Counted from the first letter of the stretch, positions 38,911 through 63,406 are shown. The stretch: 64,000 bases of DNA from Parcubacteria group bacterium Licking1014_17 (GCA_007376485.1 VMGJ01000002.1:15134-79133); one strand, 5' to 3'. The notes: generated from the sequence alone by a model not told the origin. Numbers and translations: made by a program.

Positions 38911-39549
38911 TTATCCTGTCCCTATAATAAGTCCAAACAGAAAATTAATCAAGGGGTAAAATAACGGGAATATGAAGAATATGAAAAGCACGAAAATTAT
39001 CATACTGTACCGCAGAAGAAAATACTTGAAAGCGTCATATTTACTGGAAAGAAAAGTAAACAACAGCCAGTGGCCGTCAAGAGGCGGAATCGGTATTATG
39101 TTAAATATCGCCAATAAAATATTCATCCAGACGATATAGCCGAATAACTGGAATAAGTTGCTGTTGCCGTTCAGGGGTGTATGAGCCAGCACTCTCCATA
39201 GAACACCGAATATTACCGCAAGGATAATATTGGATAACGGACCCGCGAGCGCCACTTTGAAAGTCCCCCACTTTTTGTCGCGGAGATTGTTGGGATTATA
39301 CGGCACCGGCTTTGCGTAGCCGAAAACAAATCTGCCTATGCCCAAGCCGCTACTGGCAATTATGAACAATATCGGCAAAATAACGGAACCGAACAAATCC
39401 AGGTGCTTCAACGGATTAAGCGTCAGCCTGCCCTGGTTTTTGGCCGTCGGGTCTCCTAAACTGTTGGCGACGACGCCGTGGGACAGTTCATGGAGGACAA
39501 CCGAAAACAAAATCACTATGATTTGGAAAACAATAATCATAAAACCCAT
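38911..39549 (-). CDS. Site-2 protease-like M50 family membrane metalloprotease.
   Basis: Has the HELSHG zinc motif inside a transmembrane helix and is polytopic, 212 aa. Confidence 0.7.
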   Translation of the reverse strand: MGFMIIVFQIIVILFSVVLHELSHGVVANSLGDPTAKNQGRLTLNPLKHLDLFGSVILPILFIIASSGLGIGRFVFGYAKPVPYNPNNLRDKKWGTFKVALAGPLSNIILAVIFGVLWRVLAHTPLNGNSNLFQLFGYIVWMNILLAIFNIIPIPPLDGHWLLFTFLSSKYDAFKYFLLRYSMIIFVLFIFFIFPLFYPLINFLFGLIIGTG

Positions 39550-39756
39550 TGTATTGTAAAATTAGCAGTTTTTTGCTAATATGTAAACATAATATTAATA
39601 GTTTATTGAATAATGCCTTATAGCACCGTTGGAATCATAAATTGCACGGTCTTGAGCTCTTGGCGAAAGAATTTATGATTTCACCGGAACGAGCAAACCT
39701 CGCCGGGGTTTGCGAGTGGTGATAAAAGGCGTTATTCAATTATATTAACGACATTC

Positions 39757-39945
39757 ATGACCCGTTGTCCCAAATGCGGCAAAAAACCAATGACGGCGAA
39801 CAAGCGCAAACTCTTGCGCGGTCATTATAATCCCGTAAACAGGTACCGCAAATATCCAAATCTCCAGTGGGCGTTGGTTGGCGGCAAGCGGATGAAAATC
39901 TGCACGTCTTGCATCCGGACTCTCTCAAAAACAAAATCCGCTTAA
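39757..39945 (+). CDS. rpmB: 50S ribosomal protein L28 (zinc-ribbon form).
   Basis: MTRCPKCGKKP...RKYPNLQWA...GKRMKICTSCIRTL, a C4-type bL28. Confidence 0.75.
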   Translation: MTRCPKCGKKPMTANKRKLLRGHYNPVNRYRKYPNLQWALVGGKRMKICTSCIRTLSKTKSA

Positions 39946-39992
39946 TCCGGAGATGTTTTCTTATGGACAATCGCCCTCCAGGGCGGTATTTT

Positions 39993-40030
39993 TATATTAT
40001 CGGGCTGTGGTGTAATGGCAGCACGAGTCC
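39993..40030 (+). other. tRNA 5'-half-like fragment. Its acceptor strand is complementary to the fragment at 40193..40232.
   Basis: CGGGCTG-TG-GTGT-AATGGCA-GCAC-G-AGTCC-ATGGGGG, with an intact acceptor strand and D-arm. No matching anticodon 3' stem follows. Confidence 0.4.
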
Positions 40031-40099
40031 ATGGGGGTTGAAGTAAACGATTTTACTTCAACGGGAATTTTAGAAAAATTTATTTTTCGTCGTCGCGGT

Positions 40100-40174
40100 C
40101 GGGCCGTAGTGTACCGGTAACATACACCCTTGGGGTGGGTGCGATAGCGGGTTCGATTCCCGCCGGCCCGACCA
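40100..40174 (+). tRNA. tRNA-Pro(GGG), with the CCA encoded.
   Basis: CGGGCCG-TA-GTGT-ACCGGTA-ACAT-A-CACCC-TTGGGGT-GGGTG-CGATA-GCGGG-TTCGATT-CCCGC-CGGCCCG-A-CCA. Confidence 0.8.
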
Positions 40175-40192
40175 GGGCGACGAAAATTCCCC

Positions 40193-40232
40193 GGAGGTTG
40201 TAGACCGGGTCCAACTCCCGGCAGCCCGACCA
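40193..40232 (+). other. tRNA 3'-half-like fragment (T-arm plus acceptor plus CCA) pairing with the 39993..40030 fragment.
   Basis: ...CCGGG-TCCAACT-CCCGG-CAGCCCG-A-CCA. CAGCCCG is the exact complement of CGGGCTG at 39993. Confidence 0.4.
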
Positions 40233-40242
40233 ATTCAATTTC

Positions 40243-41148
40243 TCATTTTCTTCCTATCGAAAAAACAAACGTTTTATAATACCGCGCGGGGAGAAATTGT
40301 TTTTTGAAGTCCAAGGGACTGCCTTTTTCGACGCCGCCCATATCAACGGTTTTATATCCCGCTTTTTTCAGCCATTCAAGGTCCTCCAGATAAAGCATCA
40401 AACCCAAATCATGGACGGAGTAATCATGGATGCCGATAGCGGCATAAAAATCGGTTGAATTCGGAATCGGCCAACCGGCGTTGAAACCAACAACTCTTCC
40501 GCCAACAATCATAGCTCGGGCAGTTTTGGCACAGCGGAAATTTGCGTCAATAATTGAATGATATTCATGGGCATAAGCCCTATCCCCGTATTTTCTGTGT
40601 TTTTTCCATTCATCAACAATCCGATACAGTTCTTCTTTCGGCGTTTTTGAAATATCCAAAATTTCGACTTTATGCTCGCGGTAGAATTTGCTTTTCGCGT
40701 TGCGGATTGATTTAAAATGGCTGCCGGGCAGAGCCGGATCAAATTTGTCCATATTCATAATCGGCCAGACTAAAGTGTAAGCGATGGGACGTGCCCGCAG
40801 GTTTTTGGGCATAAGCTGCAAAATCTGCCGCCTGACTGTTTCAGAGACTTCGGTCCAGAATTTTTCCGTTTCCGGGCTTTTGAACACTTCCCCACAAAAA
40901 TCTATTATTTTCCTGCCACCGTCCAAAATCGGAGCGATAGGTTCGGAAAATGTGCACCATTCTTTTTTTCTGCGGGTCAAAAAAAGCATTTCACCGCCAG
41001 GCCAAAAAGCAAAATATCTTTTTTCTTTGGGACTTGAATAAATATGGAACCATTCTAAATTGTGTTCCGGGGCGTAACCGAATTTTGCGATTGACGATTG
41101 CGCGCGGCCCGTTATTTCTTTGCTTCCGTCATCTTCAACCAGTTCCAT
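40243..41148 (-). CDS. DUF2156-like (MprF C-terminal / aminoacyl-tRNA-dependent transferase-like) protein. The assignment is tentative.
   Basis: 301-aa soluble protein next to the tRNA-Pro gene. The call rests on weak similarity in motif spacing only. Confidence 0.35.
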   Translation of the reverse strand: MELVEDDGSKEITGRAQSSIAKFGYAPEHNLEWFHIYSSPKEKRYFAFWPGGEMLFLTRRKKEWCTFSEPIAPILDGGRKIIDFCGEVFKSPETEKFWTEVSETVRRQILQLMPKNLRARPIAYTLVWPIMNMDKFDPALPGSHFKSIRNAKSKFYREHKVEILDISKTPKEELYRIVDEWKKHRKYGDRAYAHEYHSIIDANFRCAKTARAMIVGGRVVGFNAGWPIPNSTDFYAAIGIHDYSVHDLGLMLYLEDLEWLKKAGYKTVDMGGVEKGSPLDFKKQFLPARYYKTFVFSIGRK

Positions 41149-41254
41149 AAATTCAATATACCAAAAAAATCCCGGTATTCATATGATACTTTTTATAAAA
41201 AATAAAAAGAGCCGACCCGGGCTGTCGGCTCTCAAATCCTTTATTCTGATGCTG

Positions 41255-41610
41255 TTGCTATAAGGCGGGAAATGATTGCGCGGACAAACATTCCCCAGTT
41301 TAATATCAATGCCGTACTTCCACGCCCGGGCTCTTAAAAAAAGAGGGGTGAAAGTTGGGGGCATTAAACCTCGCGAGCAAGGTACTGATGACCTTTACCC
41401 GCAAGATTCCGCGATGGAACGCGTCGACCCCATATGCATAGGCAAACGGGGTTTTGGCGAGGAGGATTTAGCAGAGCTGACTCGCCCCGCAATCCATCCT
41501 CACTGTTCGCGTCCCAAAAAGAACTGTGGGTCGGGGCAAGCTCCCCAAGAGAATTTACCCCGACCCCTTTCTCTGAAACGGTAAACCACCATGCATTATT
41601 TAGTATATGA
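41255..41610 (+). ncRNA. rnpB: Candidate structured ncRNA, possibly a reduced RNase P RNA (rnpB). Strand and identity are tentative.
   Basis: A roughly 350-nt GC-rich gap with no protein-like ORF. It contains GGGGUGAAAG...GGGGCAUUAAACCUCGCGAGCAAGG, resembling the conserved RNase P GGUAAAC.CC...GAGCAAGG block, and CCCGGGCUC, resembling the P4 5' strand. Several long hairpins are present. Confidence 0.3.
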
Positions 41611-41634
41611 GATCGTCAAGTAAAGTCAATAGTT

Positions 41635-42225
41635 CTAAAATATTGTGTCTTCGTCAGCCCTTTTGTAAGAAAATATCTCTTTTTTTGAAAACCAATGACT
41701 GATTTCTCTTTTAGCTTCGGGAATAGAACCGGATGCGTGGACTATATTCCTGACTGTCCTTTTATTTTTGTTAGCAAGCGCTGGCGAATCAACGGAAAAA
41801 TCACCCCTTATGGTGCCCAAATCGGCGTTCGCCGGAATAGTTGAACCCACTATTTTTCTGCTCATTTCCACGGCATGAAGCCCTTCAAAAACCATAGCTA
41901 CAACCGGTCCAGAAGATAAAAACTCAATATTCCACTTATGGATAATTTCTCCGATTTTATAAGGATTATCGCTCCCCATTTCCTTTACTGGGTCCTTGCC
42001 ATATTTTTTGAAACTCTCAAGCGTTTTATTGCCCATTCCTTCCAGTTGTTCCTTCGTCGGCAAATAATGTTTGGCAATATGCGCGGGCGTGGGCTTGACC
42101 AATTTTAAGCCAACAAGCTTCAACCCTCTTTTTTCAAACCGCTGGATTATCTCCCCCACAATACCCCTTTGGACCGCGTCGGGTTTCGCCAAAATAAGTG
42201 TCTGCTCTTTCAATAAATTGCTCAT
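41635..42225 (-). CDS. ndk: Nucleoside diphosphate kinase, with insertions.
   Basis: EQTLILAKPDAVQRGIVGEIIQRFEKRGLKLVGLK and NIVHASGS (active-site His). Confidence 0.85.
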   Translation of the reverse strand: MSNLLKEQTLILAKPDAVQRGIVGEIIQRFEKRGLKLVGLKLVKPTPAHIAKHYLPTKEQLEGMGNKTLESFKKYGKDPVKEMGSDNPYKIGEIIHKWNIEFLSSGPVVAMVFEGLHAVEMSRKIVGSTIPANADLGTIRGDFSVDSPALANKNKRTVRNIVHASGSIPEAKREISHWFSKKEIFSYKRADEDTIF

Positions 42226-42230
42226 AAAAA

Positions 42231-43124
42231 TTATTTTATGCTCTTGATGGAGTAATTTTCCCCATCAAGCGTTAATTCAATTAAGCCGTTCTTATCAGTA
42301 CGATAATACGGAATGTGATTTTGGGCAAGACGGTCCAGAATTATCTGGCTGGGCAAATTATAGCGATTATTCTCGCCCACCTCAATAAACGCCGCCTTTG
42401 GTTTGACCGCGTTGAGAAATCTTTCCGATGTCGAGGTCTTGGAGCCGTGATGGGCGACTTTCAAAAAATCGCTGCTCAAACTGGCGTGGGAAGCGATTAA
42501 TTTATCTTCGACCTGCGACCCAATATCACCCGGAAATAAAACCGACTGCTTGCCGTATTCCAATCTTAGCACCGCCGAACTATTGTTCGTGGAGCTGACG
42601 GGCGCGTCTTTTTGGTTTTCAAACGGGTATAAAACCACCAGTTTCGCGCCACCGCCGATATCTACCGTCATTCCCCTCTCAACAGTTTCATCTTCAACTT
42701 TCTTTACACTCTCTTCTTTGTGCCATTCGTCACACAGCGAGGTTACGCAACGAACACCGGTTTCCAGAATTTCCCCGACGCTGTATCTGTCCAGAACACT
42801 TATCAATCCCGTCAAATGGTCGCTATCGGTGTGGCTTAAAACCAGCGCGTCAATTGACCGGTCAAAAAATGGCATAACTTTCCCGATTTCTTCCACCACC
42901 TTATTATCAGGTCCGCCGTCAATCAAAACCTGATTGCCGTTCGGCGATTCAATCAAAACGGCGTCGCCCTGTCCGACGTCAAGAAAATAAACTTTCAGCA
43001 ACCCTTTGCGGTCGGATACCGCGCGATAGCCGAGAAAACTGGCGGCGGCTATTAATACTAAAACCAGAAACGCCAGCCATTGCGCTTTCGGTATGCCGAC
43101 TGCTTTTTTGTTTTCTTCATTCAT
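42231..43124 (-). CDS. comEC: ComEC C-terminal metallo-beta-lactamase domain protein, encoded as a separate gene.
   Basis: VYFLDVGQGDAVLIE...LVLSHTDSDHLTGL (the HxHxDH motif). It overlaps the upstream ComEC membrane gene by 8 nt (ATGAATGA). Confidence 0.75.
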   Translation of the reverse strand: MNEENKKAVGIPKAQWLAFLVLVLIAAASFLGYRAVSDRKGLLKVYFLDVGQGDAVLIESPNGNQVLIDGGPDNKVVEEIGKVMPFFDRSIDALVLSHTDSDHLTGLISVLDRYSVGEILETGVRCVTSLCDEWHKEESVKKVEDETVERGMTVDIGGGAKLVVLYPFENQKDAPVSSTNNSSAVLRLEYGKQSVLFPGDIGSQVEDKLIASHASLSSDFLKVAHHGSKTSTSERFLNAVKPKAAFIEVGENNRYNLPSQIILDRLAQNHIPYYRTDKNGLIELTLDGENYSIKSIK

Positions 43125-44685
43125 TTTCAGGAACCGGTGGTTTCCCGCGCCAGCTTAAAAATAAAACAACGACAGCCGCCAGATAAAAAACAAAAACCGC
43201 CTGCCACGGAATTTTGACCGTTACATTGCCGCCCGGAATGGAACCGCCGATTTTTATTACTTTTATGACAAACTCCGACACCACCCAAGATAAACTGCCC
43301 AATATCTTTCCCAAAAAAGGAATTATTATGCCTAAAACGCCGGTGGCGAAACCCATTATCATTATTACGGGTATCAATGGCAGTATAATGGCGTTGACGG
43401 GCACGGAAATCAGAGAAAAACTTCCGAAACTGAATATGATTAAAGGCAGCACTGCCATTTGCGCCGAAATTGTCATGGCTAAAGTTTCGCGAAAATTGTA
43501 AACCGAGGGAGCCCAAAGAAAATATTTTTCAATCAGCGGACTGATGTAAACCAGCCCGAGCGTCGCGAGAAACGAAAGCTGAAAGCCGACGTCATAGCGC
43601 AAAATCAGCGGTTGGATAAGCACCATAACCGCCGCGGCGCCGATAATCGCCGTGCCCGGACTGCTTAGTCTGCCGTTCCGCCGTGCTATGAGGACGAGGA
43701 CGCCCATTATCGCCGCCCGGATTACCGAGGCGGCGGCTCCGACAAATATTGAAAAAACTGCGATGCCGATTATGGAAAATAACATCGCTCTCTTCCGCCC
43801 CAACACCGCCAAAAATATGAAAAGGAAAAATTCGGCGATAATAGTGATGTTGTATCCGGACACAGCCAGAATATGGGAAGTGCCGGTGCGCTTGAAATCG
43901 TTGGTCAGCGTTTCATTCTCAAAAACTCTGCCGCCTAAAAGCGTTCCGCCGACAAAAGAGGCGTTGGGCTCGGAGATCGAACGGGTAATTGAGTTTTCAA
44001 AAACATTGCGAACGGCGTAAATCGGCTTCAGAACGGATATTTTCACTTTGTCGGGAAAAGGGATTCCCGCCTGGTTGTTTATCACGGATATTTCGGGAAA
44101 ACTCATGGTTGTATAAATGCCGTCCTTCGCCAGATAAGATTTGTAATCAAACCCCTCAATAAAACCCGGCAGAAGTGGCACGCCATCCACGGATATGGTC
44201 TGCCCGAATTTATATTCCGGATAAGTATCCGATATGACGAGAACTTTCTCGTTCAATGAAATAGCGTGGTTACCGCTTATCAGTTGTCTGGCGCCGACAA
44301 TTATATTCCGCTTGCCGTTGTGAACACGCGTCGGTTCAGCCACATAACCTAAAATTGTTATCGTAACTTTCGGTTTTCCGCTTGTCTGTTTAACCTCCGC
44401 AAGCGACGCCGCTATTTCGGAAAGTCCGCGCATGCTGTAGCTGACTGATTGAAAACGCCAAATTCCCATAACCGCCACGACAAGTGCGAAACCGGCGACT
44501 AAGGGAATCAATTTTTTATCTTTCAACAGCGGTATCTTGCGCCAACTTAAAGCAACCAGAAAAACCCCCAGAGAAAAAAGGACAAACATAACATTTGCCG
44601 GCACCGAAAAAAAAGACGCTATAAAAACGCCTAAGACAAATGATAAGGATAAAACAATAAATACACGCGACGGATGCATAATCAA
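43117..44685 (-). CDS. comEC: ComEC/Rec2 competence membrane channel (DUF4131 plus competence domain).
   Basis: Polytopic 522-aa protein with an N-terminal OB-like DUF4131 and a competence-domain helix bundle. Confidence 0.75.
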   Translation of the reverse strand: MIMHPSRVFIVLSLSFVLGVFIASFFSVPANVMFVLFSLGVFLVALSWRKIPLLKDKKLIPLVAGFALVVAVMGIWRFQSVSYSMRGLSEIAASLAEVKQTSGKPKVTITILGYVAEPTRVHNGKRNIIVGARQLISGNHAISLNEKVLVISDTYPEYKFGQTISVDGVPLLPGFIEGFDYKSYLAKDGIYTTMSFPEISVINNQAGIPFPDKVKISVLKPIYAVRNVFENSITRSISEPNASFVGGTLLGGRVFENETLTNDFKRTGTSHILAVSGYNITIIAEFFLFIFLAVLGRKRAMLFSIIGIAVFSIFVGAAASVIRAAIMGVLVLIARRNGRLSSPGTAIIGAAAVMVLIQPLILRYDVGFQLSFLATLGLVYISPLIEKYFLWAPSVYNFRETLAMTISAQMAVLPLIIFSFGSFSLISVPVNAIILPLIPVIMIMGFATGVLGIIIPFLGKILGSLSWVVSEFVIKVIKIGGSIPGGNVTVKIPWQAVFVFYLAAVVVLFLSWRGKPPVPENE

Positions 44686-45356
44686 CTTACCGCACTGATT
44701 TCCTTCAAAACTTTTTCAAAAACATTGACGGCTACGACCGCCTGGTTGTGCTTCAAACTGAAACCGGCATCATGAACGATTAAATTTCTAAGTTTATGGG
44801 CGTCCCAGAGTTCCTGCAAACTGACCAAATTACCCGGCTTGATTAAAATAAGCCGTTCACCCATAGTTTCTCCCTGATAACCGGCGGCTTTAAGCGCATC
44901 ATCAACAAATTTATCCGCCTCAATGACGGCAATTTTCCATTCCGCTTCGTTGTATGACTGGGCTTTTGCTTTTATCGCTTCCCAACTGCCCTGTTTCAGG
45001 GTTGTTTGCATGATGGCGGGCGCGCCATCGCTTCCCGCGGGCGGCGTTTGAGTAGTTCTCGTTGCTTCGCCCATGGCTTTATTAATGGCGCGGATTCTGA
45101 AGAAAAGATATACCAGAACGAATATGAAGAAAATAATAAAAGCAATCGCGACTTTTTTCGCCGTGGCGATGAGGTCAGGGTCAGTTAAATCTAAGTGGAA
45201 GAAATTGCCGATGTTCCTGAAAAAATTTATTATCGGCTCAAAAATATTCGGGAGATTGATATCGGTTCTCAACCCGCTAAAATTCGGACCCCGCGGAGCC
45301 GAGGATTGTCCCAGCGTGAATACCCATGATGGAATTGTTGGCTGTGGTAAAAGCAT
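44682..45356 (-). CDS. Hypothetical membrane protein of 224 aa.
   Basis: One transmembrane helix and a soluble C-terminal domain. It overlaps the comEC start by 4 nt. Confidence 0.4.
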   Translation of the reverse strand: MLLPQPTIPSWVFTLGQSSAPRGPNFSGLRTDINLPNIFEPIINFFRNIGNFFHLDLTDPDLIATAKKVAIAFIIFFIFVLVYLFFRIRAINKAMGEATRTTQTPPAGSDGAPAIMQTTLKQGSWEAIKAKAQSYNEAEWKIAVIEADKFVDDALKAAGYQGETMGERLILIKPGNLVSLQELWDAHKLRNLIVHDAGFSLKHNQAVVAVNVFEKVLKEISAVS

Positions 45357-45365
45357 ATTTATAAT

Positions 45366-46769
45366 TTAACGTGATAATTCATAAGCATGGGCAACGCGCA
45401 AAATGGTTGCTTCGTCAAAATGCCTGCCCATTATTTGAAAACCGACCGGCAATTCTTTGCCGTCAATCAGTACAGTCCCGCAGGGCACGGAAATCGCCGG
45501 GATGCCGACAAGATTCGCCTGAACCGTAAACATATCAGCCATGTAAGCCGACAGCGGATCCGTCAGCTCCCCTATTTTCGGCGCAACCATCGGCGCGACC
45601 GGACCGACAATAACGTCAAAATTTTTATAAACTTTTTCAAAATCTTTCCGTAAGAGAGTCCTGACTTTCTGCGCCTTTAAATAATAGGCGTCGTAGTAGC
45701 CGGCGGACAACGTATAGGTGCCGATAATTACCCGGCGCCGCACTTCCGGACCCAAAAATTCGGCGCGGGTATGCAAATAGGAATCAATGTAAGAATCGCC
45801 ATCCGATGAAACCTTGCCGTATTTGATGCCGTCGTAGCGCGCCAAGTTTGAAGAAACTTCTGACGGAACAAGGATATAATAAGCCGCCAAAGCGTATTCA
45901 GCCGTTGGGATATTTACATAATCAACATAAATGCCGAGCTTACCCAGCACGCTTATCGCTTTTTCAACGGAAATTTTAATATCCGGGCTGATGCCTTCGC
46001 CGAAATACTCTTTCGGAACCGCGGCTCGCAAACCCTTAACGGGCTTATCCAATTCTTTGACAAAATCCGGAACTTCCGCCGGCGAGCTTGTAGAATCCAT
46101 CGGATCGCGCCCGGAAATGACATTCAATACTATTGCCGCGTCCTCGACAGTTTTTGTTATCGGACCGATTTGGTCAAAACCGGAAGCCATGGCAATTAAG
46201 CCGTGGCGCGACACTCTGCCATAAGTCGGCTTTAATCCGACAACGCCGCACAATGACGCCGGCATTCTGATTGAGCCCCCAGTGTCGGAGCCCAGAGCAA
46301 AAACCGCCATGTCCGCCGCTACTGCCGCCACAGAGCCGCATGAAGAACCACCGGCGATGCGCTTGTCGTCGTAGGGATTCAGGGTCGGACCAAAAGCTGA
46401 ATTTTCGCCGGTCGTACCCATGGCAAATTCATCCAAATTTGTTTTGCCAAGAATAACGGCCCCCGCGGCTTTTAACTTTGACACAGCCGTAGCGTCGTAA
46501 GCCGCTGTATAATTTGAAAGGATTTTAGAGCCGGCAGTGCAATGCTTTCCTTCCACAAGAATGGAATCTTTAACAGCGCAGGGAATACCGGCAAGCGCGC
46601 CGCCTGATTTTTCCGCTTTTTCATCACCTTTATAAACCTCCAGATAGGCGTTTAATTTTTTATCGTGAAGTTCAATTTCGCGCAAAAATCCCTGCCTGAT
46701 TTCCTCGGCACTCGCCTCGCCGTTCTCTATCATGTGCAGGACTTTTTTAATTGTCAGGTCGCTGTTCAT
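45366..46769 (-). CDS. gatA: Glu-tRNA(Gln) amidotransferase subunit A.
   Basis: Has the amidase signature (GGSSCGSVAAVAA, the Ser-cisSer-Lys triad region). The start was set at the ATG at 46769 (MNSDLTIKKVLHMIENGE). Confidence 0.9.
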   Translation of the reverse strand: MNSDLTIKKVLHMIENGEASAEEIRQGFLREIELHDKKLNAYLEVYKGDEKAEKSGGALAGIPCAVKDSILVEGKHCTAGSKILSNYTAAYDATAVSKLKAAGAVILGKTNLDEFAMGTTGENSAFGPTLNPYDDKRIAGGSSCGSVAAVAADMAVFALGSDTGGSIRMPASLCGVVGLKPTYGRVSRHGLIAMASGFDQIGPITKTVEDAAIVLNVISGRDPMDSTSSPAEVPDFVKELDKPVKGLRAAVPKEYFGEGISPDIKISVEKAISVLGKLGIYVDYVNIPTAEYALAAYYILVPSEVSSNLARYDGIKYGKVSSDGDSYIDSYLHTRAEFLGPEVRRRVIIGTYTLSAGYYDAYYLKAQKVRTLLRKDFEKVYKNFDVIVGPVAPMVAPKIGELTDPLSAYMADMFTVQANLVGIPAISVPCGTVLIDGKELPVGFQIMGRHFDEATILRVAHAYELSR

Positions 46770-46790
46770 AAATACTAAGTAAAATATTAA

Positions 46791-46930
46791 TTGAGAAATA
46801 CGTTTTTGAGCAGTACAGCGAGCCAGTTTTGCTTGGTCCCGCACCGGTATGGTGCGGGAAAACTGGCGAGGTATAAGTGAGGGCTTCGCTGGAAAGCCCG
46901 AACATCTGCGAAAAAATGTATTTCTCAATG
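46791..46930 (-). ncRNA. Copy A of a three-copy, roughly 140-nt structured RNA element, lying between gatC and gatA.
   Basis: Core GAGCAGTACAGCGAGCCAGTTTTGCTTGGTCCC.CACC...GGTG.GGGAAAACTGGCGAGGTATAAG...CGCTGGAAA...CATCTGCGAAA. The closing stem is TTGAGAAATAC/GTATTTCTCAA. It starts 12 nt after the gatC stop. Confidence 0.55.
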
Positions 46931-46941
46931 CTAAAGAACCC

Positions 46942-47247
46942 CTACTTTGCTTCTAAAATTGACTTCACTTTTACGAAATTCTCTTTTCGGCGCGGCGCCT
47001 GTCCGACAAGTTTTTCGGTATTTTCTAATGACGGCTCTATGGAATTCGTATCATCGCGGAAAACATTTTCCATGCCCGTTACCTGCGCCGTCGGCTCCAC
47101 ACCCGCCAAATCAAGTTCACCTATTTTATTGACGTAATCCAAAATCGGCTCCAACTCTCCGGTCAGTTTTTCCCGCTCTTTCGCGGTCAATTTTATCCGC
47201 GCCAAATGAGCGACATATTCAACTTCTTTTTCGGTAATACGAGACAT
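46942..47247 (-). CDS. gatC: Asp/Glu-tRNA amidotransferase subunit C.
   Basis: 101 aa, ...ITEKEVEYVAHLARIKLTAKEREKLTGEL... Confidence 0.85.
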   Translation of the reverse strand: MSRITEKEVEYVAHLARIKLTAKEREKLTGELEPILDYVNKIGELDLAGVEPTAQVTGMENVFRDDTNSIEPSLENTEKLVGQAPRRKENFVKVKSILEAK

Positions 47248-47377
47248 AAGTTAAAAATAGCACAAAAAATACAAAACCTAAAGATATTTGACGTTACTCA
47301 TTAATAATGTTATTATTAACACAGCCCACAAAGATTGTTGATTCCTTGACAATTTGGTTTAAGAAACGAGGTGTAAC

Positions 47378-47791
47378 ATGACACGCATTCTTTTTTCTGT
47401 TTTGGGGGTTTACATCCTGTTGTTATCTGTTTCCTGTGGTCCTACCCCACCGACCGTCCTGATTACAACATCACAGACGGAGACAAAGGTAAATCTAGAT
47501 GCTGCAATCACGATCGGTAATCACACGTGGCTGCCTCTTAATTTAGAGCAGGGCAAGCCCTTTGGGGAGCCGGCACGCCCTATTAACCACGTTCTGGACA
47601 TTCTCAATATTCTTAAAGCATTTGAGGATGCCCACCCGGAGTTGGAGACCACCGGGTGGTTCATTGAGAAGGAACAGCGTGCAAGTGGGACTATGAGGAA
47701 TATATTTGGTATCTGGGTTGATCATAGACCCAAACAGGCTTGCATATGCGACTGCAATTGCGGGCCCACACCAAAACTCGAAAAAGAGTAG
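47378..47791 (+). CDS. Hypothetical lipoprotein-like secreted protein.
   Basis: GAGGTG ribosome-binding site, a signal peptide with LSVSC, and a C-terminal CICDCNC. Confidence 0.5.
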   Translation: MTRILFSVLGVYILLLSVSCGPTPPTVLITTSQTETKVNLDAAITIGNHTWLPLNLEQGKPFGEPARPINHVLDILNILKAFEDAHPELETTGWFIEKEQRASGTMRNIFGIWVDHRPKQACICDCNCGPTPKLEKE

Positions 47792-47876
47792 GAGATAACG
47801 ACAAATCGGTTAGGGATTGCGGTATTTTGATAAGAAGCCACCATCCCCGGCCGATTTTTTTATTGATACAGCTCAT

Positions 47877-48030
47877 AGCCGAAGCCAAACTGCTTTTGAG
47901 CAGTACAGCGAGCCAGTTTTGCTTGGTCCCCCACCGGCACGCCGGTGGGGGAAAACTGGCGAGGTATAAGCGGAGGTTTTCGCTGGAAAAACCGGAGCAT
48001 CTGCGAAAGGGCAGTTTGACTTTGGCGCCA
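47877..48030 (-). ncRNA. Copy B of the structured RNA element, immediately 3' of ligA.
   Basis: Same core as copy A. The closing stem GCCAAACTGC/GCAGTTTG(A)C has different sequence but is still complementary. It abuts the ligA stop codon at 48031. Confidence 0.55.
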
Positions 48031-50178
48031 TTATTTTACCATCCTCAAAAACTCCCCTTCCGAGATTATTTTCACTCCCAGTTTTTTGGCTTTATCAAAT
48101 TTTGAGCCCGGTTCGTGGCCGGCGACGACATAGCTGGTTTCCTTGGATATCGACGATAAGGCGTCGCCGCCATTTTCGCGGACGAGTTTTTCGGCATCCT
48201 CGCGAGTAATGGTATCAAGCGAACCAGTGAAGATGAACGACAGTCCTTTCAATTTCTGCGATTTTTGCGATTTGCTTTGCGCCAGCACTTTCACCCCGGC
48301 TTTTTTGAATTTTTCCAAAAGTTTTTTGCTGTATGGTTTTTTGAACCACTTATAAATTTCTTCAGCCGTAACATCACCGATGTCTTTTATTGAATTCAAT
48401 TCTCCGGCTTCGGCACCGGCGATTTTTTCGATTGTGCCGAACTGGCGCGCCAAATCAACAGCCGTTTCAATGCCTACGTGCGGAATCCCCAAACTGAAAA
48501 CAAATCTATCCAGCGTCACGGTTTTGTGCGACTGAATGGCGCCAATTGTATTTTCGGCGGATTTGTCGGCAAATCTTTCCAGGTTCATCAGGTCTTCTTT
48601 TTTTAATTTATACAAATCAGTAACATCCCTGATTAAGCCGGCATCAACAAGCTGGTCAATTATTTTCGGACCGACACCGTCTATATTCATCGCTCCTTTG
48701 GAAACAAAATGATACATATATTCCCTTTTTCTCGCTGGACAGTTCTCGTTGACGCATTTGTGCGCGGCATAACCCTCTTCCCTGACAATCGCGCCCTCGC
48801 AGGCGGGACATTTTTTGGGAAAATGAAATTCTTTTTCCTTGCCAGTTCTCAATTCCTTCAAAACTTTTTTTATGTCCGGAATGACATCGCCCGCCCTTCC
48901 GACAACCACCGTATCGCCTATTTTCACTCCGAGCCGTTTTATTTCATCTTCGTTGTGGAGGGTGGCGCGCGATATCGTTGTCCCGCCGATTTCCACCGGC
49001 TCAAGCACCGCTACCGGCGTGAGCGTTCCGGTACGCCCGACGCTGACAATGATGTCATTCAATTTTGTCGTTGATTCGCGTGGAGAAAACTTGTAAGCAA
49101 CAATTGCTCTCGGTGCTTTGCCGATAATGCCCAGCTTTTTTGACATTTTATTGTCGTTGATTATTACAACCGTGCCGTCAATTTCATAAGACAGCTTTTC
49201 GCGGTGTTTTTCCCAGTAGTCGCGGAAACCGCCGACTTCGTCAATCGTGCGGCAATATTTATTGTTTGGATTGGTTTTAAAACCAAGCGCCTTGAGAATC
49301 AGATGCTCCTCTTCATGGGTTTCCTGCCCGAAATTTGTGAGCAACGAATACGCGTACGAATCAAGTTTGCGCGAAGCGGTCAGTTTGGGGTCAAGCTGTC
49401 TGATGGAACCGGCGGCAAGATTGCGAGGGTTTTTATAAGTTGCCTCTCCGGCTTTTTTCTGTTCGGCGTTCATGCGCTCAAATTCTTTTTTGCTCAAAAA
49501 AACCTCACCTCTCACAATAATTTCTTCCGGCAGCCCCTTCGACAAGCTCAGGGCAGGCTCCTTCGACAAGCTCAGGGCAGGCTCCTTCGACAAGCTCAGG
49601 GCAGGCTCCTTCGACAAGCTCAGGGCAGGCTCCTTCGACAAGCTCAGGGCAAGCCCTTTTTCCCCCATTTCCTTCAAAAATTCTTCTCTGCTATTCAACT
49701 TCAGCGGTATGGCTTCAACTGTTTTCAGGTTTTGAGTAACATTTTCACCGATAAAACCGTCGCCGCGGGTGGCGCCGACAGCCAAGCTCCCGTTTTTATA
49801 AATCAGCTCAATCGCTAAGCCGTCTATTTTTAATTCGCAGAAAAATCCGGAATCAATAGCGCGGCTATCCAATCTTTTTACGCGGTCTATCCAGTCGTTT
49901 AAATCATCTTTATTAAAAACATCATTGAAAGAAAGCATCCTTCCCGGATGGGTAAACTTTTCAAATTTATCCAACGGCTTGCCGGCAACGCGCTGGGTCG
50001 GCGAATCGGGGGTCACGATTTTTGGGAATTGCTGCTCTAAATCAAATAGTTCCTTTTTGAGCGAGTCCTCAACCGATTCTTCGATTATCGGCGCGTCCAA
50101 AACCAGCCGGTGATAACGGTATTTATTGATTAAAACCCTTAATTTTTCAGCCCTTTGAGCGGCTTCTTTTGTGGTCAT
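48031..50178 (-). CDS. ligA: NAD-dependent DNA ligase LigA, carrying an in-frame (EPALSLSK)x5 insertion.
   Basis: Has the KxDG adenylation motif region (ELKIDGLAIEL), the OB domain, a Zn finger (CPACEGAIVREEGYAAHKCVNENC), an HhH domain and a BRCT domain. The protein is 715 aa. Confidence 0.9.
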   Translation of the reverse strand: MTTKEAAQRAEKLRVLINKYRYHRLVLDAPIIEESVEDSLKKELFDLEQQFPKIVTPDSPTQRVAGKPLDKFEKFTHPGRMLSFNDVFNKDDLNDWIDRVKRLDSRAIDSGFFCELKIDGLAIELIYKNGSLAVGATRGDGFIGENVTQNLKTVEAIPLKLNSREEFLKEMGEKGLALSLSKEPALSLSKEPALSLSKEPALSLSKEPALSLSKGLPEEIIVRGEVFLSKKEFERMNAEQKKAGEATYKNPRNLAAGSIRQLDPKLTASRKLDSYAYSLLTNFGQETHEEEHLILKALGFKTNPNNKYCRTIDEVGGFRDYWEKHREKLSYEIDGTVVIINDNKMSKKLGIIGKAPRAIVAYKFSPRESTTKLNDIIVSVGRTGTLTPVAVLEPVEIGGTTISRATLHNEDEIKRLGVKIGDTVVVGRAGDVIPDIKKVLKELRTGKEKEFHFPKKCPACEGAIVREEGYAAHKCVNENCPARKREYMYHFVSKGAMNIDGVGPKIIDQLVDAGLIRDVTDLYKLKKEDLMNLERFADKSAENTIGAIQSHKTVTLDRFVFSLGIPHVGIETAVDLARQFGTIEKIAGAEAGELNSIKDIGDVTAEEIYKWFKKPYSKKLLEKFKKAGVKVLAQSKSQKSQKLKGLSFIFTGSLDTITREDAEKLVRENGGDALSSISKETSYVVAGHEPGSKFDKAKKLGVKIISEGEFLRMVK
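49532..49656. repeat. Five tandem copies of a 24-nt unit (CCTTCGACAAGCTCAGGGCAGGCT) inside ligA.
   Basis: The repeat is in frame. It encodes EPALSLSK x5 on the coding strand and SFDKLRAG x5 / LRQAQGRL x5 in the shadow frames. It belongs to the dispersed repeat family. Confidence 0.8.
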
Positions 50179-50318
50179 TTACTCTAAGAATATAACATAA
50201 AATAGCGTAAATGCGAGCGACACCGAGCCTAAACTACCTTTAGGCAGCACAGCGCTATTTGCTAACAATCATTCCATATGTTATTAAACAATCAGTCGGA
50301 AAATTGAAAGGAGTTACT

Positions 50319-50531
50319 ATGAAAGCGACCGTAAGCGCAGTCTTTGAAGCTTATCAAAGAGCAGTGGCGGAACGGGAGAAAGCAAGAAACGGTGATAGAG
50401 AACCCGGCAGCTACGGCGAAATGCTTGTGTTAACCGTACGTCTCGAAAAAGTTCTCCTGGAATGTGATGTTAAAATTGAACTACCCCAAGGGACAGAAAC
50501 GTTCATAGCCCCCGCGCTGAGCAAGCTATGA
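50319..50531 (+). CDS. Hypothetical 70-aa protein.
   Basis: AAAGGAG ribosome-binding site plus an ATG at 50319 (MKATVSAVFEAYQRAVAEREK...). Confidence 0.3.
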   Translation: MKATVSAVFEAYQRAVAEREKARNGDREPGSYGEMLVLTVRLEKVLLECDVKIELPQGTETFIAPALSKL

Positions 50532-50641
50532 AAAGCTTCAATCCCAACATCAAAAGTCCCCCATTTATTGGGGGCACTTTTTTTATTCCTATCATACTTT
50601 ATTCGAGATACAAGACTATTTTCTTTCAGACGATTCCATAA

Positions 50642-50789
50642 CCGAAGCCAAACTGCCTTTGAGCAGTACAGCGAGCCAGTTTTGCTTGGTCCCCCACCAG
50701 CGTGCTGGTGGGGGAAAACTGGTGAGCTATAAGCGGAGGTTTTCGCTGGAAAAACCGTAGCATCTGCGAAAAGGCAGTTTGGCTTCGGC
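50642..50789 (-). ncRNA. Copy C of the structured RNA element, 10 nt 3' of the pilX-like gene.
   Basis: Same core as copies A and B. It has a 20-bp closing stem CCGAAGCCAAACTGCCTTT/AAAGGCAGTTTGGCTTCGG and an internal compensatory stem GGTTTT/AAAACC (GGGCTT/AAGCCC in copy A). Confidence 0.55.
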
Positions 50790-50798
50790 TATAAATTA

Positions 50799-51185
50799 TT
50801 ATTCTGGCGTGCTTATTTCAAGCGTCCTTGTTACGCCCATGTATCTGCCTGTCGCGCGGAGAGGGTTTTTCGCGCACATTGTGACGGCATCCCCCGGAGG
50901 AAACGTTTCGGTCGGAACGTTCGGGTCAAAAAGAAAATATTGGATTCCTTCAATAGACATTACTGGCGGTTCTACCGCGTCGCCGGCTTTATTGACATAA
51001 AGGCAATATTCCATGGCGGAGTCGGCGGCGTAAATAGCCGCCGACGAATACCTTACGTCGCGGGCGGTTTTGATTTTCGGAACGAATATCGCGGAGAGTT
51101 CAATCGTAATCAACATCAAGAAAGAACAGAAAAGCAGTGTTGTCAGGAGAATCGAACCTCTGTTGTTTTTTAATTTTATTCCCAT
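50799..51185 (-). CDS. PilX-like minor pilin or pilus assembly protein.
   Basis: N-terminal hydrophobic segment (RGSILLTTLLFCSFLMLITIEL) and AADSAMEYCLY, a PilX_N-like pattern. Confidence 0.5.
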   Translation of the reverse strand: MGIKLKNNRGSILLTTLLFCSFLMLITIELSAIFVPKIKTARDVRYSSAAIYAADSAMEYCLYVNKAGDAVEPPVMSIEGIQYFLFDPNVPTETFPPGDAVTMCAKNPLRATGRYMGVTRTLEISTPE

Positions 51186-51186
51186 A

Positions 51187-51738
51187 TTACTGTGACTGAA
51201 GTTGTCTTAATGAAACCGTTGTCTGAAAATTTTCAACACTGTCCGAGCCCGTTGCCCTGACCGCCCCGATTATAGTTACTCGCGGCTGATAGCTGTCGTC
51301 CGGGTCCTGCCCGAAGATGCAGAATTTCAAATCCACGACCTCAACCAAATTAAAATTAAGAATCGACGATTCGGTGACAGGACCAGCGAGCGAAGACAAA
51401 ACATCGCGATTTGCTTCGAAAGTTCCGTCGGTTTTATAATATTTCACGATTCCGTTGTCAGGATGCTGAATAGTAATTGACGACACGCAATCGCCCATCG
51501 TTGCGGGTTCCAGAATTTCGCTGACCCTGATTTCCTTTGTCATTCTTTCAATCATATAGGTCATTGTCTCCTGAACCTGCTGGGTATCAAAGGATCTTCT
51601 CTGTTCCTTGAGAGCGCTGACAAAAACGCCAGATACCACGACAATAATCGTGGCAAAAATGGTGGACGCGACCAGTATTTCAACCAGGGTGAACCCCGCA
51701 CGATTGTTCTTTTTTAATTTAACATTAATACCAGTCAT
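51187..51738 (-). CDS. Type IV minor pilin, PilW-like.
   Basis: Prepilin leader plus G|FTLVEILVAS and 183 aa. Confidence 0.6.
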   Translation of the reverse strand: MTGINVKLKKNNRAGFTLVEILVASTIFATIIVVVSGVFVSALKEQRRSFDTQQVQETMTYMIERMTKEIRVSEILEPATMGDCVSSITIQHPDNGIVKYYKTDGTFEANRDVLSSLAGPVTESSILNFNLVEVVDLKFCIFGQDPDDSYQPRVTIIGAVRATGSDSVENFQTTVSLRQLQSQ

Positions 51739-60928: not shown

Positions 60929-61810
60929 CTAGTCCAATAGCAATTTTACTATCCCGTTCAATTCTTCCAAAGTGGCGAACCTGATGACGATATTGCCTCC
61001 AGAGGCGCCGTTTTTAATCAGCACCGGCACGCCCAGATTCTTGGATAAATTATCCTGCAATTCGATAAATTTCCTGCCGCCGGTAATTACCGGCTTTCTG
61101 CCGCTCCTGTTTTTCCGCGCTTCTTCTTCGGCGTCTTTAATGACCGCCTGCCCGCTTAACATCTGCCTGAACATGTTTTTCTGGGACGCCTCGTCCTTAA
61201 AAGCCAAGAGTGTTCTCGCCTGGGTTCGGGAAAGCTTGTTGCTTCTCAACGCCTGCTTGATTTCCGCCGGCAAACCCAAGAGGCGTATCGTGTTTGCCAC
61301 TACTTCCCTGCTCTTTCCAACCTTTGTGGAAATTTCTTTCTGGGTCAGCTTGAATTCTTCCGCCAATCTGTTGTAAGCCTCCGCCTCTTCCATCGGATTT
61401 AAATCCTCGCGCTGGACGTTTTCAATAAGCGCCACTTCCAGTTTCATCCTATCCTCGTCAATATTATCTTTTATTATAACCGGCACCGTCGGTAACCCGG
61501 CAAGTTTCGCCGCCCGCCAGCGCCTTTCGCCGGCAATCAGCTCGTAATTCACATTTATCCCCTTTTCGGTTTCCTCCGTAATTTTTGAAACCAAAAGCGG
61601 CTGAAGAACTCCGTATTTTTTGATGGACGACGCCAGTTCATCCAGGGCGTTCTTATTGAAATCGCGCCTCACCTGGCTCGGGTTCGACTTGATTTTTCCA
61701 GTTTCAACATAAAAAATATTACTGCTCCGCGGCTCCGCTGCGCTCTTTCTTGCCATGGTTGGTATTAGCGATTCAAGCCCCCGACCAAGACCGCTGTTTG
61801 TTTTTTTCAT
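60929..61810 (-). CDS. parB: Chromosome partitioning protein ParB/Spo0J.
   Basis: ParB box LIAGERRWRAAKLAGL and an HTH. Confidence 0.9.
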   Translation of the reverse strand: MKKTNSGLGRGLESLIPTMARKSAAEPRSSNIFYVETGKIKSNPSQVRRDFNKNALDELASSIKKYGVLQPLLVSKITEETEKGINVNYELIAGERRWRAAKLAGLPTVPVIIKDNIDEDRMKLEVALIENVQREDLNPMEEAEAYNRLAEEFKLTQKEISTKVGKSREVVANTIRLLGLPAEIKQALRSNKLSRTQARTLLAFKDEASQKNMFRQMLSGQAVIKDAEEEARKNRSGRKPVITGGRKFIELQDNLSKNLGVPVLIKNGASGGNIVIRFATLEELNGIVKLLLD

Positions 61811-61811
61811 T

Positions 61812-62573
61812 TTATATAAGATTTAAAATTTCTCTGGCTAATTGATGATAAGCTTTGGCTCCCTTCGACCCGGGATCAAATTGAAACACCGTCTTGCCGT
61901 AACTCGGCGCTTCCGCCAAAGACACGCAACGCGGGATGATAGTCTCAAAAACCGGCCCCGGAAAATTTTTTTCCACTTCATTGGCAACCTGCCGCGACAG
62001 GGTATTACGCCTATCAAACATTGTAAGCAGAACTCCGTAAATTTTCAATTGCGGATTGAGAGATTTCCTCACAAGCTCGATTGTCTGCAGTAATTGCCCC
62101 AGCCCTTCCAGCGCGAAATATTCGCACTGAACCGGAATAACCAGCCCTTCGGAAGCCACAAGCCCGTTTATCGTCAAAAGCCCGAGCGACGGTGGGCTGT
62201 CTATAATAATGTAATCGTAATTGGTCCTAATTTTGTCCAAAACTTTTTTCAGGCGCGACTCGCGTTCGTCAACTCCAACCAGCTCCACTCCGGCTCCCGC
62301 CAGGCTTGACGCCGCCGGCAGAATGTCAAAACCCATCAGCCGCGATTTTCTGATAATCGCCTCTGGTTCCTGCCCGTCAACAAGGGCGTGATAAAGATTC
62401 AGGTGGTCATCCGCCAAGTGGACATCCAAAGCAGAAGTGGCGTTCGCCTGCGGATCTAAATCCACCAGCAGGACGTATTTGCCCATCGCCGAAAGATACG
62501 CCCCCAAATTGCTGGCAGTCGTGGTCTTTCCCACTCCCCCTTTCGCGTTGATTACTCCAATAATCCGAGCCAT
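61812..62573 (-). CDS. parA: Chromosome partitioning ATPase ParA/Soj.
   Basis: Deviant Walker A KGGVGKTTT. The start is adjacent to the parB stop. Confidence 0.9.
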   Translation of the reverse strand: MARIIGVINAKGGVGKTTTASNLGAYLSAMGKYVLLVDLDPQANATSALDVHLADDHLNLYHALVDGQEPEAIIRKSRLMGFDILPAASSLAGAGVELVGVDERESRLKKVLDKIRTNYDYIIIDSPPSLGLLTINGLVASEGLVIPVQCEYFALEGLGQLLQTIELVRKSLNPQLKIYGVLLTMFDRRNTLSRQVANEVEKNFPGPVFETIIPRCVSLAEAPSYGKTVFQFDPGSKGAKAYHQLAREILNLI

Positions 62574-62725
62574 ATGATTTTATTGTAACGGATTATTTTT
62601 CTTTTACAACAATCTTGTAGGCTAGAACCCATGAATGTTGACAGATACCAATTTTATTAGTATGTTATGTCTGTTTTTGCACCTAGTTCCCGAACAACAA
62701 TTCTTTTAGAAACGGAGGATTTATC

Positions 62726-63235
62726 GTGGAAAAAACGAAAGTTGACTGGAAGGTTATCAAGTCGTTTTTCTTTGAGGCAATGCTCAAAGGGTGGGTTGAT
62801 GGTTTTGAAGTCAAACCTGACTACCTCGGCCTCTATGAGATATCCCACACCAACCAGGAGGGTACTCTACTACTCAAAGATAAGTGGCACGCCCCGGGCG
62901 ATAAGTTCTTTGGTTCAACGCGGATATGGGTAAGGAATGGGGATTGGGTCTTGATCTAGGCAATGGCCTATATGGGTTCATACCCCAAAGAAATAAACCC
63001 ATTTCTTAGGAACGCCCTAAAAAACGCCTACCAAAGCAGAAGATTTCACGGGGGTCGTGGGTTCATGTACAGTGGTAATATCGATGGGAAACATTACCGC
63101 TACGAAAACGAAAGCTACCCCGATACGATCTGGGAATTCCATGGAAGTGAGACAATTTTTGAACGGAAATGGACAGACCGTGAAGTAGAAGATAGAGTCG
63201 GGGGATGTACTTTTTTCGGCGGGTCAATGATTTAA
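62726..63235 (+). pseudogene. Gene split by a single in-frame TAG (62960..62962) into 77-aa and 90-aa ORFs. It is either a nonsense-mutated pseudogene or a readthrough candidate.
   Basis: ORFs 62726..62959 and 62963..63235 share one reading frame and are separated only by ...GAT TGG GTC TTG ATC TAG GCA ATG GCC.... Confidence 0.45.
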
Positions 63236-63257
63236 ACACCTCTGAATCTCCCTGTTT

Positions 63258-63293
63258 ACGGCTGCGGCTTCGCGCGCAGCCGTTTTCATTTTT
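63258..63293 (+). terminator. Rho-independent terminator.
   Basis: ACGGCTGCG-gcttcgcg-CGCAGCCGT followed by TTTTCATTTTT. Confidence 0.65.
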
Positions 63294-63321
63294 CCAAATA
63301 ATTGGTATAAAATATCTGTAT

Positions 63322-63406
63322 GCCTGGGTGGCGGAACTGGCAGACGCGCACGACTCAAAATCGTGTGCCGCAAGGCATGGGAGTTCGACTCTCCCCCCAG
63401 GCACCA
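63322..63406 (+). tRNA. tRNA-Leu(CAA), class II with a long variable arm and the CCA encoded.
   Basis: GCCTGGG-TG-GCGG-AACTGGCAG-ACGC-G-CACGA-CTCAAAA-TCGTG-TGCCGCAAGGCAT-GGGAG-TTCGACT-CTCCC-CCCAGGC-A-CCA. Confidence 0.85.

Follow-up and report, generated by a model that had tools for sequence, protein, structure and literature searches.

The bcr1 repeats of the Bacillus cereus group are transcribed, multicopy, non-coding elements of ~155 bp whose positions are non-syntenic between strains, and their predicted RNA has a closing stem and two independent stem-loops kept by compensatory changes (PMC3184786; PMC6542083). Here, we describe a lineage-restricted family of non-coding insertions of ~135–160 nt in Parcubacteria, centred on a 64,000-nt stretch of Parcubacteria group bacterium Licking1014_17 (the window, to which coordinates refer unless a locus label is given). 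Its copies share a fold with covarying helices, and we tentatively read the family as mobile and non-coding, with selection acting on a single folded strand and RNA from the sense strand favoured. The closest analogues are bcr1, then ERIC and Correia. The likeness to bcr1 lies in size, in multicopy, non-coding and non-syntenic occurrence, and in a closing stem plus two stem-loops with compensatory changes. However, bcr1 is flanked by TTTAT direct repeats, whereas the Parcubacteria element shows neither TTTAT nor a consistent duplication, and bcr1 is known to be transcribed, whereas the Parcubacteria element is known from DNA sequence alone. There is no detectable sequence relation between the two, and the Parcubacteria family is divided into two subtypes that prefer opposite gene ends, while its unpaired motifs are deeply conserved.

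ERIC/IRU and the Correia (nemis) elements of Neisseria are intergenic inverted repeats of 100–170 bp that form long hairpins (PMC3184786). They differ from the present family in having terminal inverted repeats (TIRs) of conserved sequence, TA duplications (Correia) and an action within the host mRNA; in Parcubacteria the TIR drifts with complementarity kept, and in one subtype (type A, below) the selected strand runs antisense to host mRNA. ERIC and Correia elements share transcripts with their neighbouring genes, on which their effect depends on orientation. PMC3733652 describes repetitive extragenic palindromes (REPs) as 20–40-nt palindromes with a GTAG/CGTC head, and REPINs as simple hairpins. 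Both resemble our family in being intergenic, often between convergent genes, in forming one-strand hairpins without an open reading frame (ORF), and in being thought to be mobilised in trans (by RAYT). A REP-like role was the nearest of three suggestions made by an earlier reading of the stretch from sequence alone (the sequence-only reading), but the defining REP features are absent: the element is a branched fold of 135–160 nt (a three-way junction of about 140 nt), its ends carry no GTAG/CGTC head, and no RAYT gene or Y1_Tnp domain was seen in the examined DNA, ~105 kb of two genomes. Finally, riboswitches and ribozymes, among them riboswitches built on a three-way junction and having kissing loops, share with the family conserved junction and loop nucleotides, covarying helices, a variable decorative hairpin, a possible loop–loop pseudoknot and, for the second subtype (type B), a place in 5' leaders. 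They differ in that the family has no Rfam match, orthologous loci do not share its insertions, no gene lies downstream of type A copies on their own strand, and no ligand or cleavage site is inferable. At the sequence level the family is new, and several of the features tested set it apart from known structured repeats.

Fold, covariation and strand asymmetry

Three plus-strand copies of ~140–150 nt (c1, c2 and c3; Table 1) lie in the region 46600–51000, where the sequence-only reading had placed them, and a repeat finder recovers them as families D2 and D4. The bounds it gave for c2 (47877–48030) take in a few flanking bases. The conserved core it described is present: the 33-nt GAGCAGTACAGCGAGCCAGTTTTGCTTGGTCCC has exactly three matches, where shuffles expect 0, and column identity across the c1–c3 alignments is 82–89%. 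The closing stems had been quoted correctly (TTGAGAAATAC/GTATTTCTCAA in c1, CCGAAGCCAAACTGCCTTT/AAAGGCAGTTTGGCTTCGG in c3), and in this stem c2 has four substitutions that yield, on the plus strand, three G·U pairs and one C·A mismatch. The reported covariation of an internal stem (GGGCTT/AAGCCC vs GGTTTT/AAAACC) was likewise found, and the GC-rich hairpin holds additional compensated pairs. RNAalifold counts nine double-change pairs among c1–c3 alone. Folding energies lie well below those of shuffles (z −6 to −10; c3, −87.4 kcal/mol, z = −10), and the plus strand is 4–9 kcal/mol more stable than the minus strand in these three copies (c1, −66.5 vs −57.5 kcal/mol).

A covariance model built from c1–c3 (R1; later models R2 and R3), as the sequence-only reading had suggested, found a fourth window copy, c4. 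The sequence of c4 is only ~50% identical to the first three with the architecture unchanged; it was not alignable to them with MAFFT, so covariance-model alignment was used. Its independent minimum-free-energy (MFE) fold shows the same architecture (plus strand −55.4 vs minus strand −40.9 kcal/mol). Beyond the window end, loci L085 and L103 from an ENA assembly of this organism add five more copies (c5–c9) within ~19 kb. Model searches found no copy in the 9 kb preceding the window or in window 1–39600, so the copies are clustered: 0 in 48 kb, then nine in ~44 kb. Two further copies, d1 and d2, lie in a syntenic relative (GCA_041499075.1, locus L087) whose M50 peptidase is 61% identical, and a truncated orthologue of d1 occurs in L088, an independent Logan assembly. 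The family totals 11 copies, nine in ~93 kb of Licking1014_17 and two in 20 kb of GCA_041499075.1; the nearest relatives of Licking1014_17 reach only ~57–63% protein identity.

Searches elsewhere were negative. A scan of the window at Rfam 15 gathering thresholds reported two tRNAs only, and permissive scans (E up to 10) of c1–c3, c5–c8, d1 and d2 gave no match on any copy. Exact-pattern scans for the type A core found none in GTDB species representatives and three chance matches, in coding DNA, in JGI metagenomes; pattern scans of IMG/VR gave none, or five chance matches with different folds, and blastn against plasmids and phages gave no match. With R1, R2 or R3 there was no copy in 80 GatA-anchored GTDB loci (1.24 Mb), an anchor too conserved to pick close relatives. 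Five relatives other than L087 yielded nothing beyond chance, and model searches of loci L089, L092–L095 and L097 found no copy.

All 11 copies share one fold. A closing stem P1 (15–20 bp) leads through a G·A mismatch zone into P2 (4 bp) and a three-way junction, from which arms P3 and P4 branch; the purine–purine zone is a tandem GA/GA in type A and a single G·A beside P2 in type B. Arm P3 consists of P3a, a 5' bulge UGCUUGGU (UGCACGGU, UGCAUGGU or UGCUAGGU in other copies) and hairpin P3b, and the bulge motif UGCNNGGU is near-invariant across the 11 copies, both genomes and both types. Arm P4 consists of a 2-bp P4a, a GA/GA or GGA/GNA internal loop, P4b and a loop CGCUGGA. The loop motif CGCYGG is kept in 9/11 copies, d1 and d2 among them; the loop reads UCGCCGG in c4, and CGCUCGG with a hairpin insert in c6 and c9. 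Type A (c1, c2, c3, c5, c7, c8, and the A-like d1) has J2/3 UACAGCGAG and a long P3b, whereas in type B (c4, c6, c9, and the B-like d2) J2/3 is short and the P3b loop large. P3b is hypervariable between copies in length (5–12 bp) and sequence, and forms a hairpin in every one of them. There is no conserved ORF within the element, as minus-strand ORFs change frame from copy to copy.

The compensatory changes claimed from three copies are strengthened by comparison of the 11. In the nine-copy model alignment, 97.6% of 420 stem cells are standard pairs and 46 of the 50 modelled pairs show double-sided changes; none of 500 shuffles attains any observed measure, and sliding the 3' partners by 1–3 columns lowers pairing to 38–47%. 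The pairing is also asymmetric between strands. A transition in a stem gives G·U on one strand and A·C on the opposite strand, and the stem cells of ten copies comprise 437 Watson–Crick pairs, 27 G·U, one A·C and 11 others, mostly purine–purine. The 27:1 ratio of G·U to A·C therefore indicates that pairing is selected on the sense strand only. The sense strand is 4–15 kcal/mol more stable in every copy tested both ways (c1–c8, d1, d2).

Conservation is unevenly distributed over the fold. Among six type A copies, whose cores are ~95% identical to one another, identity is 100% in P2, 88% in P3a and 86% in the unpaired core, and falls to 62% in P1, 54% in the P3b stem and 21% in the P3b loop. P1, the fastest-evolving type A helix, is complementary throughout, with double changes in 20 of its 22 pairs. 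Unpaired motifs are kept between two genomes whose proteins share only ~60% identity. Constraint thus falls on sequence at junctions and loops and on complementarity only in the helices, and this rate heterogeneity among type A copies points to a constrained functional fold and not to uniform decay. Loop–loop contacts are more speculative. The P4 loop of type B is complementary through its 5' end to the P3b loop's 3' end, and two positions of the match covary (UCGCC/GGCGA in c4; UCGGU/GCCGA in c6 and c9), which hints that the two loops may kiss. In type A, the P4 loop is complementary to J2/3 (CAGCGA/UCGCUG) in 5/6 copies, shifted in d1 and broken in c7, and here a pseudoknot is offered purely as a hypothesis.

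Insertion sites and orientation

In relatives (L005, L006, L092, L095), gatC overlaps gatA and ligA abuts gatC at a distance of 5 nt. In Licking1014_17, c1 splits gatC from gatA, and c2 together with an orphan ORF splits ligA from gatC. Because ligA-gatC-gatA is contiguous in the relatives, the copies are insertions. Presence and absence alternate between the two genomes elsewhere: the L28–M50 spacer is 43 nt in L087 vs 207 nt with c4 in Licking1014_17, and the rpsG–fusA spacer is 49 nt in Licking1014_17 vs 384 nt with d1 in L087. Candidate target duplications are CATA/CATA at c7 and CCATAA/CTATAA at c3, weak because the flanks are AT-rich and the matches short; the inspected flanks of c1, c2, c4, c5, c6 and c8 have none.

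The orientation of copies follows their subtype. All seven type A copies, d1 included, have the element's 3' end facing the stop codon of a converging gene at 4–56 nt (gatC, ligA, the pilin-like gene, folD, SHMT, a GIY-YIG gene and rpsG), and where both flanking genes run in the same direction (c1, c5, c8, d1) the element is antisense in 4/4. In all four type B copies the 3' end faces the start codon of a gene in the element's own orientation, at distances of 14 nt (rpmB), 6 nt (folD), 35 nt (comEC) and 52 nt (a PMT glycosyltransferase). This division of subtypes between gene ends (7/0 against 0/4) has an exact probability of 1/330. Between −9 kb and +73 kb of the region, GC skew stays below zero, and c8 is reversed along with the local genes. 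As c8 is flipped while the skew keeps its sign, orientation tracks transcription and not replication direction. As a side observation, parA/parB (61812–62573 / 60929–61810) and a switch of gene orientation at 62600–63500 hinted at a replication origin; since GC skew is negative across 83 kb, there is no origin or terminus in the stretch.

These data qualify the placement proposed by the sequence-only reading, "always immediately 3' of a minus-strand gene". This is accurate for c1–c3, which lie 11, 4 and 9 nt from the stops of gatC, ligA and the pilin-like gene. However, c1 is also 20 nt upstream of the gatA start, within the gatCA operon; the selected fold is on the plus strand, antisense to those genes; and c4 instead lies 14 nt upstream of plus-strand rpmB, between its start (39757) and the minus-strand start of an M50 peptidase gene (39547–39549). 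While c1 sits within the gatC–gatA junction, c2 and c3 occupy convergent intergenic regions, where c2 is 87 nt downstream of a same-strand 137-aa orphan ORF and 4 nt from the ligA stop, and c3 is 110 nt downstream of a same-strand 70-aa orphan ORF and 9 nt from the pilin-like stop.

Table 1. Coordinates of element copies, parts of copy c3 and neighbouring genes
Feature	Position	Strand	Remarks
Copy c1 (type A)	46790..46930	+	Covariance-model bounds; R1 138 bits, R3 139 bits
Copy c2 (type A)	47879..48026	+	Covariance-model bounds; R1/R3 140–178 bits
Copy c3 (type A)	50642..50789	+	Covariance-model bounds; also repeat finder, core match, R1/R3
Copy c4 (type B)	39604..39742	+	R1 E = 0.0095; R2 and R3 89 bits
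c3 P1 5' arm, 19 nt	50642..50660	+	Pairs with 50770–50788
c3 tandem G·A zone	GA 50661–50662 opposite GA 50768–50769	+	Read from alignment
c3 P2 5' strand GCAG	50663–50666 (zone 50661..50667)	+	Pairs with CUGC 50764–50767
c3 unpaired bulge GCUUGGU, 5' side of P3	50684..50690	+	Alignments
c3 hairpin P3b	50691..50714	+	Alignments
c3 hairpin P4b GGUUUU/AAAACC	50738..50756	+	7-nt loop CGCUGGA 50744–50750; stem covaries
gatA	45366–46769	−	Start codon 46767–46769
gatC	46942–47247	−	Stop codon 46942–46944
ligA	48031–50178	−	Stop codon 48031–48033
Orphan ORF, 137 aa	47378–47791	+	
Orphan ORF, 70 aa	50319–50531	+	
Terminator-like hairpin of the 70-aa orphan ORF	50556–50575	+	
Pilin-like gene	50799–51185	−	

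Several copies (c2, c3, c7 and d2) lie 35–221 nt downstream of, and on the same strand as, lineage-specific ORFs without Pfam domains. Such ORFs break the ligA-gatC-gatA-X-comEC synteny at window 47378–47791(+) and 50319–50531(+), L085 12465–12953(+) and L087 2723–5080(+); each is then followed by a same-strand element copy, and the L085 orphan is bracketed by c6(−) and c7(+). A cassette-like association of orphan genes with the element is possible. The gatC–gatA junction is also expanded in L087 (405–642) and L097 (1670–1951), to 237–280 nt where other relatives have an overlap; it holds a small antisense ORF and not the element, and seems to be a recurrent insertion site. Just upstream of c7 (L085 ~13095–13140, +), GGGCTGTTGTTTCGAAGCACCGCTGATCATTGC resembles the 5' part of c6 (GGGCTGTTGCTTTAAAGCAC...CGCTGATTGC) and may be a decayed type B fragment. 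Finally, window 22474–22488 is a 15-nt exact match to the c3 P1 5' arm (GCCAAACTGCCTTT; blastn E 0.008), and a second GCCAAACTG...CTTTGA occurs at 22572–22590. Both sites fall inside an apparent small minus-strand ORF, and the 22474–22488 match may be due to chance.

Candidate explanations

The reading we prefer, to which we give a little less than even confidence, is that the element is mobile and non-coding and that selection acts on its folded single strand. RNA from the sense strand would be the selected form because 6% G·U is spread through ~50 bp of helices, because purine–purine mismatch motifs are conserved, and because the conservation pattern is riboswitch-like with type B copies in 5' leaders. 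We infer its function and mechanism of mobility as follows. The family would spread through a copy-and-insert process, and only insertions tolerated by local transcription would survive. The two conserved unpaired motifs could be a docking site for a trans-acting factor (a protein) or a tertiary contact. The antisense rule of type A would then be a filter, sense insertions within transcription units not being tolerated, which would leave type A copies beside the 3' ends of genes and antisense to the neighbouring operon. Type B copies, just upstream of starts in sense orientation, would provide a highly structured 5' leader. On this last point, the starts inspected (gatC, 47248–47275; ligA, 50179–50200; gatA, rpmB and folD) have no Shine-Dalgarno-like sequence upstream, and their leaders are short and AU-rich, which bears on how a structured element 6–20 nt upstream of a start might affect initiation.

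Several observations weigh against this interpretation. A promoter scan found none consistently placed upstream of type A copies, and four of these copies lack a co-oriented upstream gene to supply a sense transcript. No partner protein was found in the ~105 kb examined, nor any transposase, reverse transcriptase, integrase or HUH domain. The family is carried by two genomes only, and the orientation statistics come from 11 copies. The alignment used for pair counts was fitted by the model, though independent MFE folds reproduce the architecture. The proposed pseudoknot is based on two type B variants, and its type A form is broken by c7. As for possible promoters, −10-like boxes at identical spacing occur at c1 and c5 only, and a possible hybrid promoter, GTGAT-N16-17-TAnnnT, is seen at type B 3' ends, with a geometry at c6 that is incompatible with the folD start.

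A bolder form of the RNA reading is that the family is a new mobile functional RNA class of the Candidate Phyla Radiation, namely a self-processing or protein-recruiting three-way-junction RNA with a loop–loop pseudoknot, whose sense insertions in operons are lethal and whose type B copies were co-opted as 5' leaders. An RNA activity making sense-orientation operon insertions lethal would explain the antisense rule, but we regard this form as quite unlikely.

The foremost alternative, which we judge rather unlikely, is that the fold is the single-stranded DNA transposition substrate of a trans-encoded HUH/Y1 enzyme (IS200/IS605-derived PATE, or REPIN/RAYT-like) and is selected for mobility and not as RNA. 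Selection on one strand fits such a substrate, as does tolerance of G·T-type wobble. The same is true of the unconserved terminal sequence, the inconsistent target duplication, insertion sites that differ between genomes, the lack of a promoter or terminator associated with type A, and the clustering of copies. Yet no Y1/HUH transposase domain occurs in the examined DNA, and IS200/IS605-type elements carry subterminal hairpins, and not a three-way junction closed by a terminal stem of 15–20 bp. Transposition as single-stranded DNA would be expected to follow the lagging-strand template, whereas orientation here follows local transcription and not the replichore, c8 being flipped under the same GC skew. 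The precise, sense placement of type B in 5' leaders also speaks against it.

That the copies are resident, non-mobile RNA genes or cis-regulators seems unlikely. Type B copies would be leaders, riboswitch-like or protein-binding, of rpmB, folD, comEC and the PMT glycosyltransferase gene, and type A copies sibling small RNAs or insulators against antisense transcription at converging 3' ends. A conserved junction and loops with covarying helices and one free hairpin is the pattern of riboswitches and ribozymes, type B lies 6–52 nt upstream of starts in sense orientation in 4/4, and promoter-like hexamers, read by eye and missed by the promoter scan, occur upstream of c4 and c6. Nevertheless, relatives with the same synteny have no copy at the orthologous position, so these are not ancestral leaders; the genes that would be regulated are functionally unrelated; Rfam gives no match even at E = 10; and the near-identical type A cores suit recent spread better than ancient paralogy.

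An ordinary DDE-type MITE (miniature inverted-repeat transposable element), with P1 as a TIR bound as double-stranded DNA and the internal structure incidental, is very unlikely. The sequence-only reading had argued against a simple MITE, and this stands insofar as complementarity and not sequence is kept at the ends and target duplications are inconsistent; it does not stand as an argument against mobility, which is indicated by insertions that break the synteny of relatives. Size, multicopy and intergenic occurrence, the terminal inverted repeat, the possible short duplications at c7 and c3, and presence/absence at orthologous sites would all suit a MITE. A TIR should conserve its sequence, whereas P1 is only 62% identical while double changes keep it complementary, and 27:1 G·U to A·C is not expected of a duplex DNA site. 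Moreover, the internal helices covary, the unpaired motifs are the most conserved part, and most copies lack a target duplication.

The remaining suggestion of the sequence-only reading, that gatC, ligA and the pilin-like gene have in the element a 3'-UTR stabiliser or an intrinsic terminator, is highly improbable: c1–c3 do lie 4–11 nt past stop codons and the minus-strand transcript also forms a stable hairpin (−57 to −83 kcal/mol), but pairing is selected on the opposite strand, which is missing from the mRNAs of those genes; the minus strand is the less stable one, by 4–15 kcal/mol, in every copy tested and has no U-tract after the stem at c2 and c3; termination at c1, inside the gatCA operon, would silence gatA; and type B copies are not at 3' ends. 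A terminator scan of 39400–51300 found none at any copy. The flanks of c1–c8 show no T-run after P1 on either strand, and the antisense side of d1 alone has TTTTTT, 6 nt away.

Other identities were considered and set aside. A conserved cis-regulatory leader, of a ribosomal-protein or riboswitch kind, should recur upstream of the orthologous gene, but L28 is preceded by 43 nt in L087, and in L089 by 150 nt that are AT-rich and unrelated. Integron attC sites have R''(RYYYAAC)...R'(GTTRRRY) core sites, cassette arrays and an integrase; the ends of the element, GTTGAG...CTCAAC or CCGAAG...CTTCGG, have inverse polarity or are unrelated, no integrase was seen in the examined DNA, and the flanking genes are syntenic housekeeping genes. 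Resemblances to template or variable repeats of diversity-generating retroelements, retron msr-msd, hammerhead, twister, and 5S-like or Y-RNA-like RNAs were set aside because defining motifs or partner genes are missing.

Neighbouring repeats and significance

The ligA gene (minus strand) contains, at window 49533–49659, five head-to-tail 24-nt units (GCTCCTTCGACAAGCTCAGGGCAG) in frame, encoding LSLSKEPA five times. In an independent ENA assembly of the same organism, a contig break falls exactly at this tandem repeat (L004 begins within ligA). The motif CTTCGAC-N2-3-GCTCAG has seven matches in the window vs 0 expected, at 25961–25975(−), 29742–29756(−) and 49537–49647(+, five times). Outside it, the motif occurs at L085 12047–12062(−) in c6, L103 21579–21594(+) in c9, L087 16444, L026 11025 and L043 7462. 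Its settings are the ligA tandem repeat, a site after typA and a group I intron; c6 and c9 carry it within a palindromic insert of 28 nt in the P4 loop, and other Candidate Phyla Radiation genomes have it too. It has the look of a small palindromic insertion in its own right, landing in the loops of structured RNAs and even in coding DNA. The intron is a match to Rfam Intron_gpI at window 29618–29884 (−), of 42.2 bits and E = 3.4e-9, below the gathering score of 50. Upstream of it on the minus strand (~29880–29908) lies a tRNA-like acceptor and D-arm, CCGGCGTAGCTCAATGGTAGAGC; a group I intron probably interrupts a tRNA gene here, a candidate called neither by ARAGORN nor by the Rfam gathering scan.

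Non-coding RNA and mobile DNA of Candidate Phyla Radiation bacteria are almost unexplored. In these small, streamlined genomes, one non-coding copy per ~5–10 kb over part of the genome amounts to a notable investment, and strand-specific selection on structure shows with unusual clarity in the family (27 G·U vs one A·C). If the RNA reading is true, the family would be a candidate for a new class of RNA, with a protein or tertiary docking site open to testing; if the single-stranded DNA reading is true, it would point to a transposition system of Candidate Phyla Radiation bacteria that has gone unrecognised. Either way, the natural annotation of these copies as terminators of the neighbouring genes is wrong and is corrected here.

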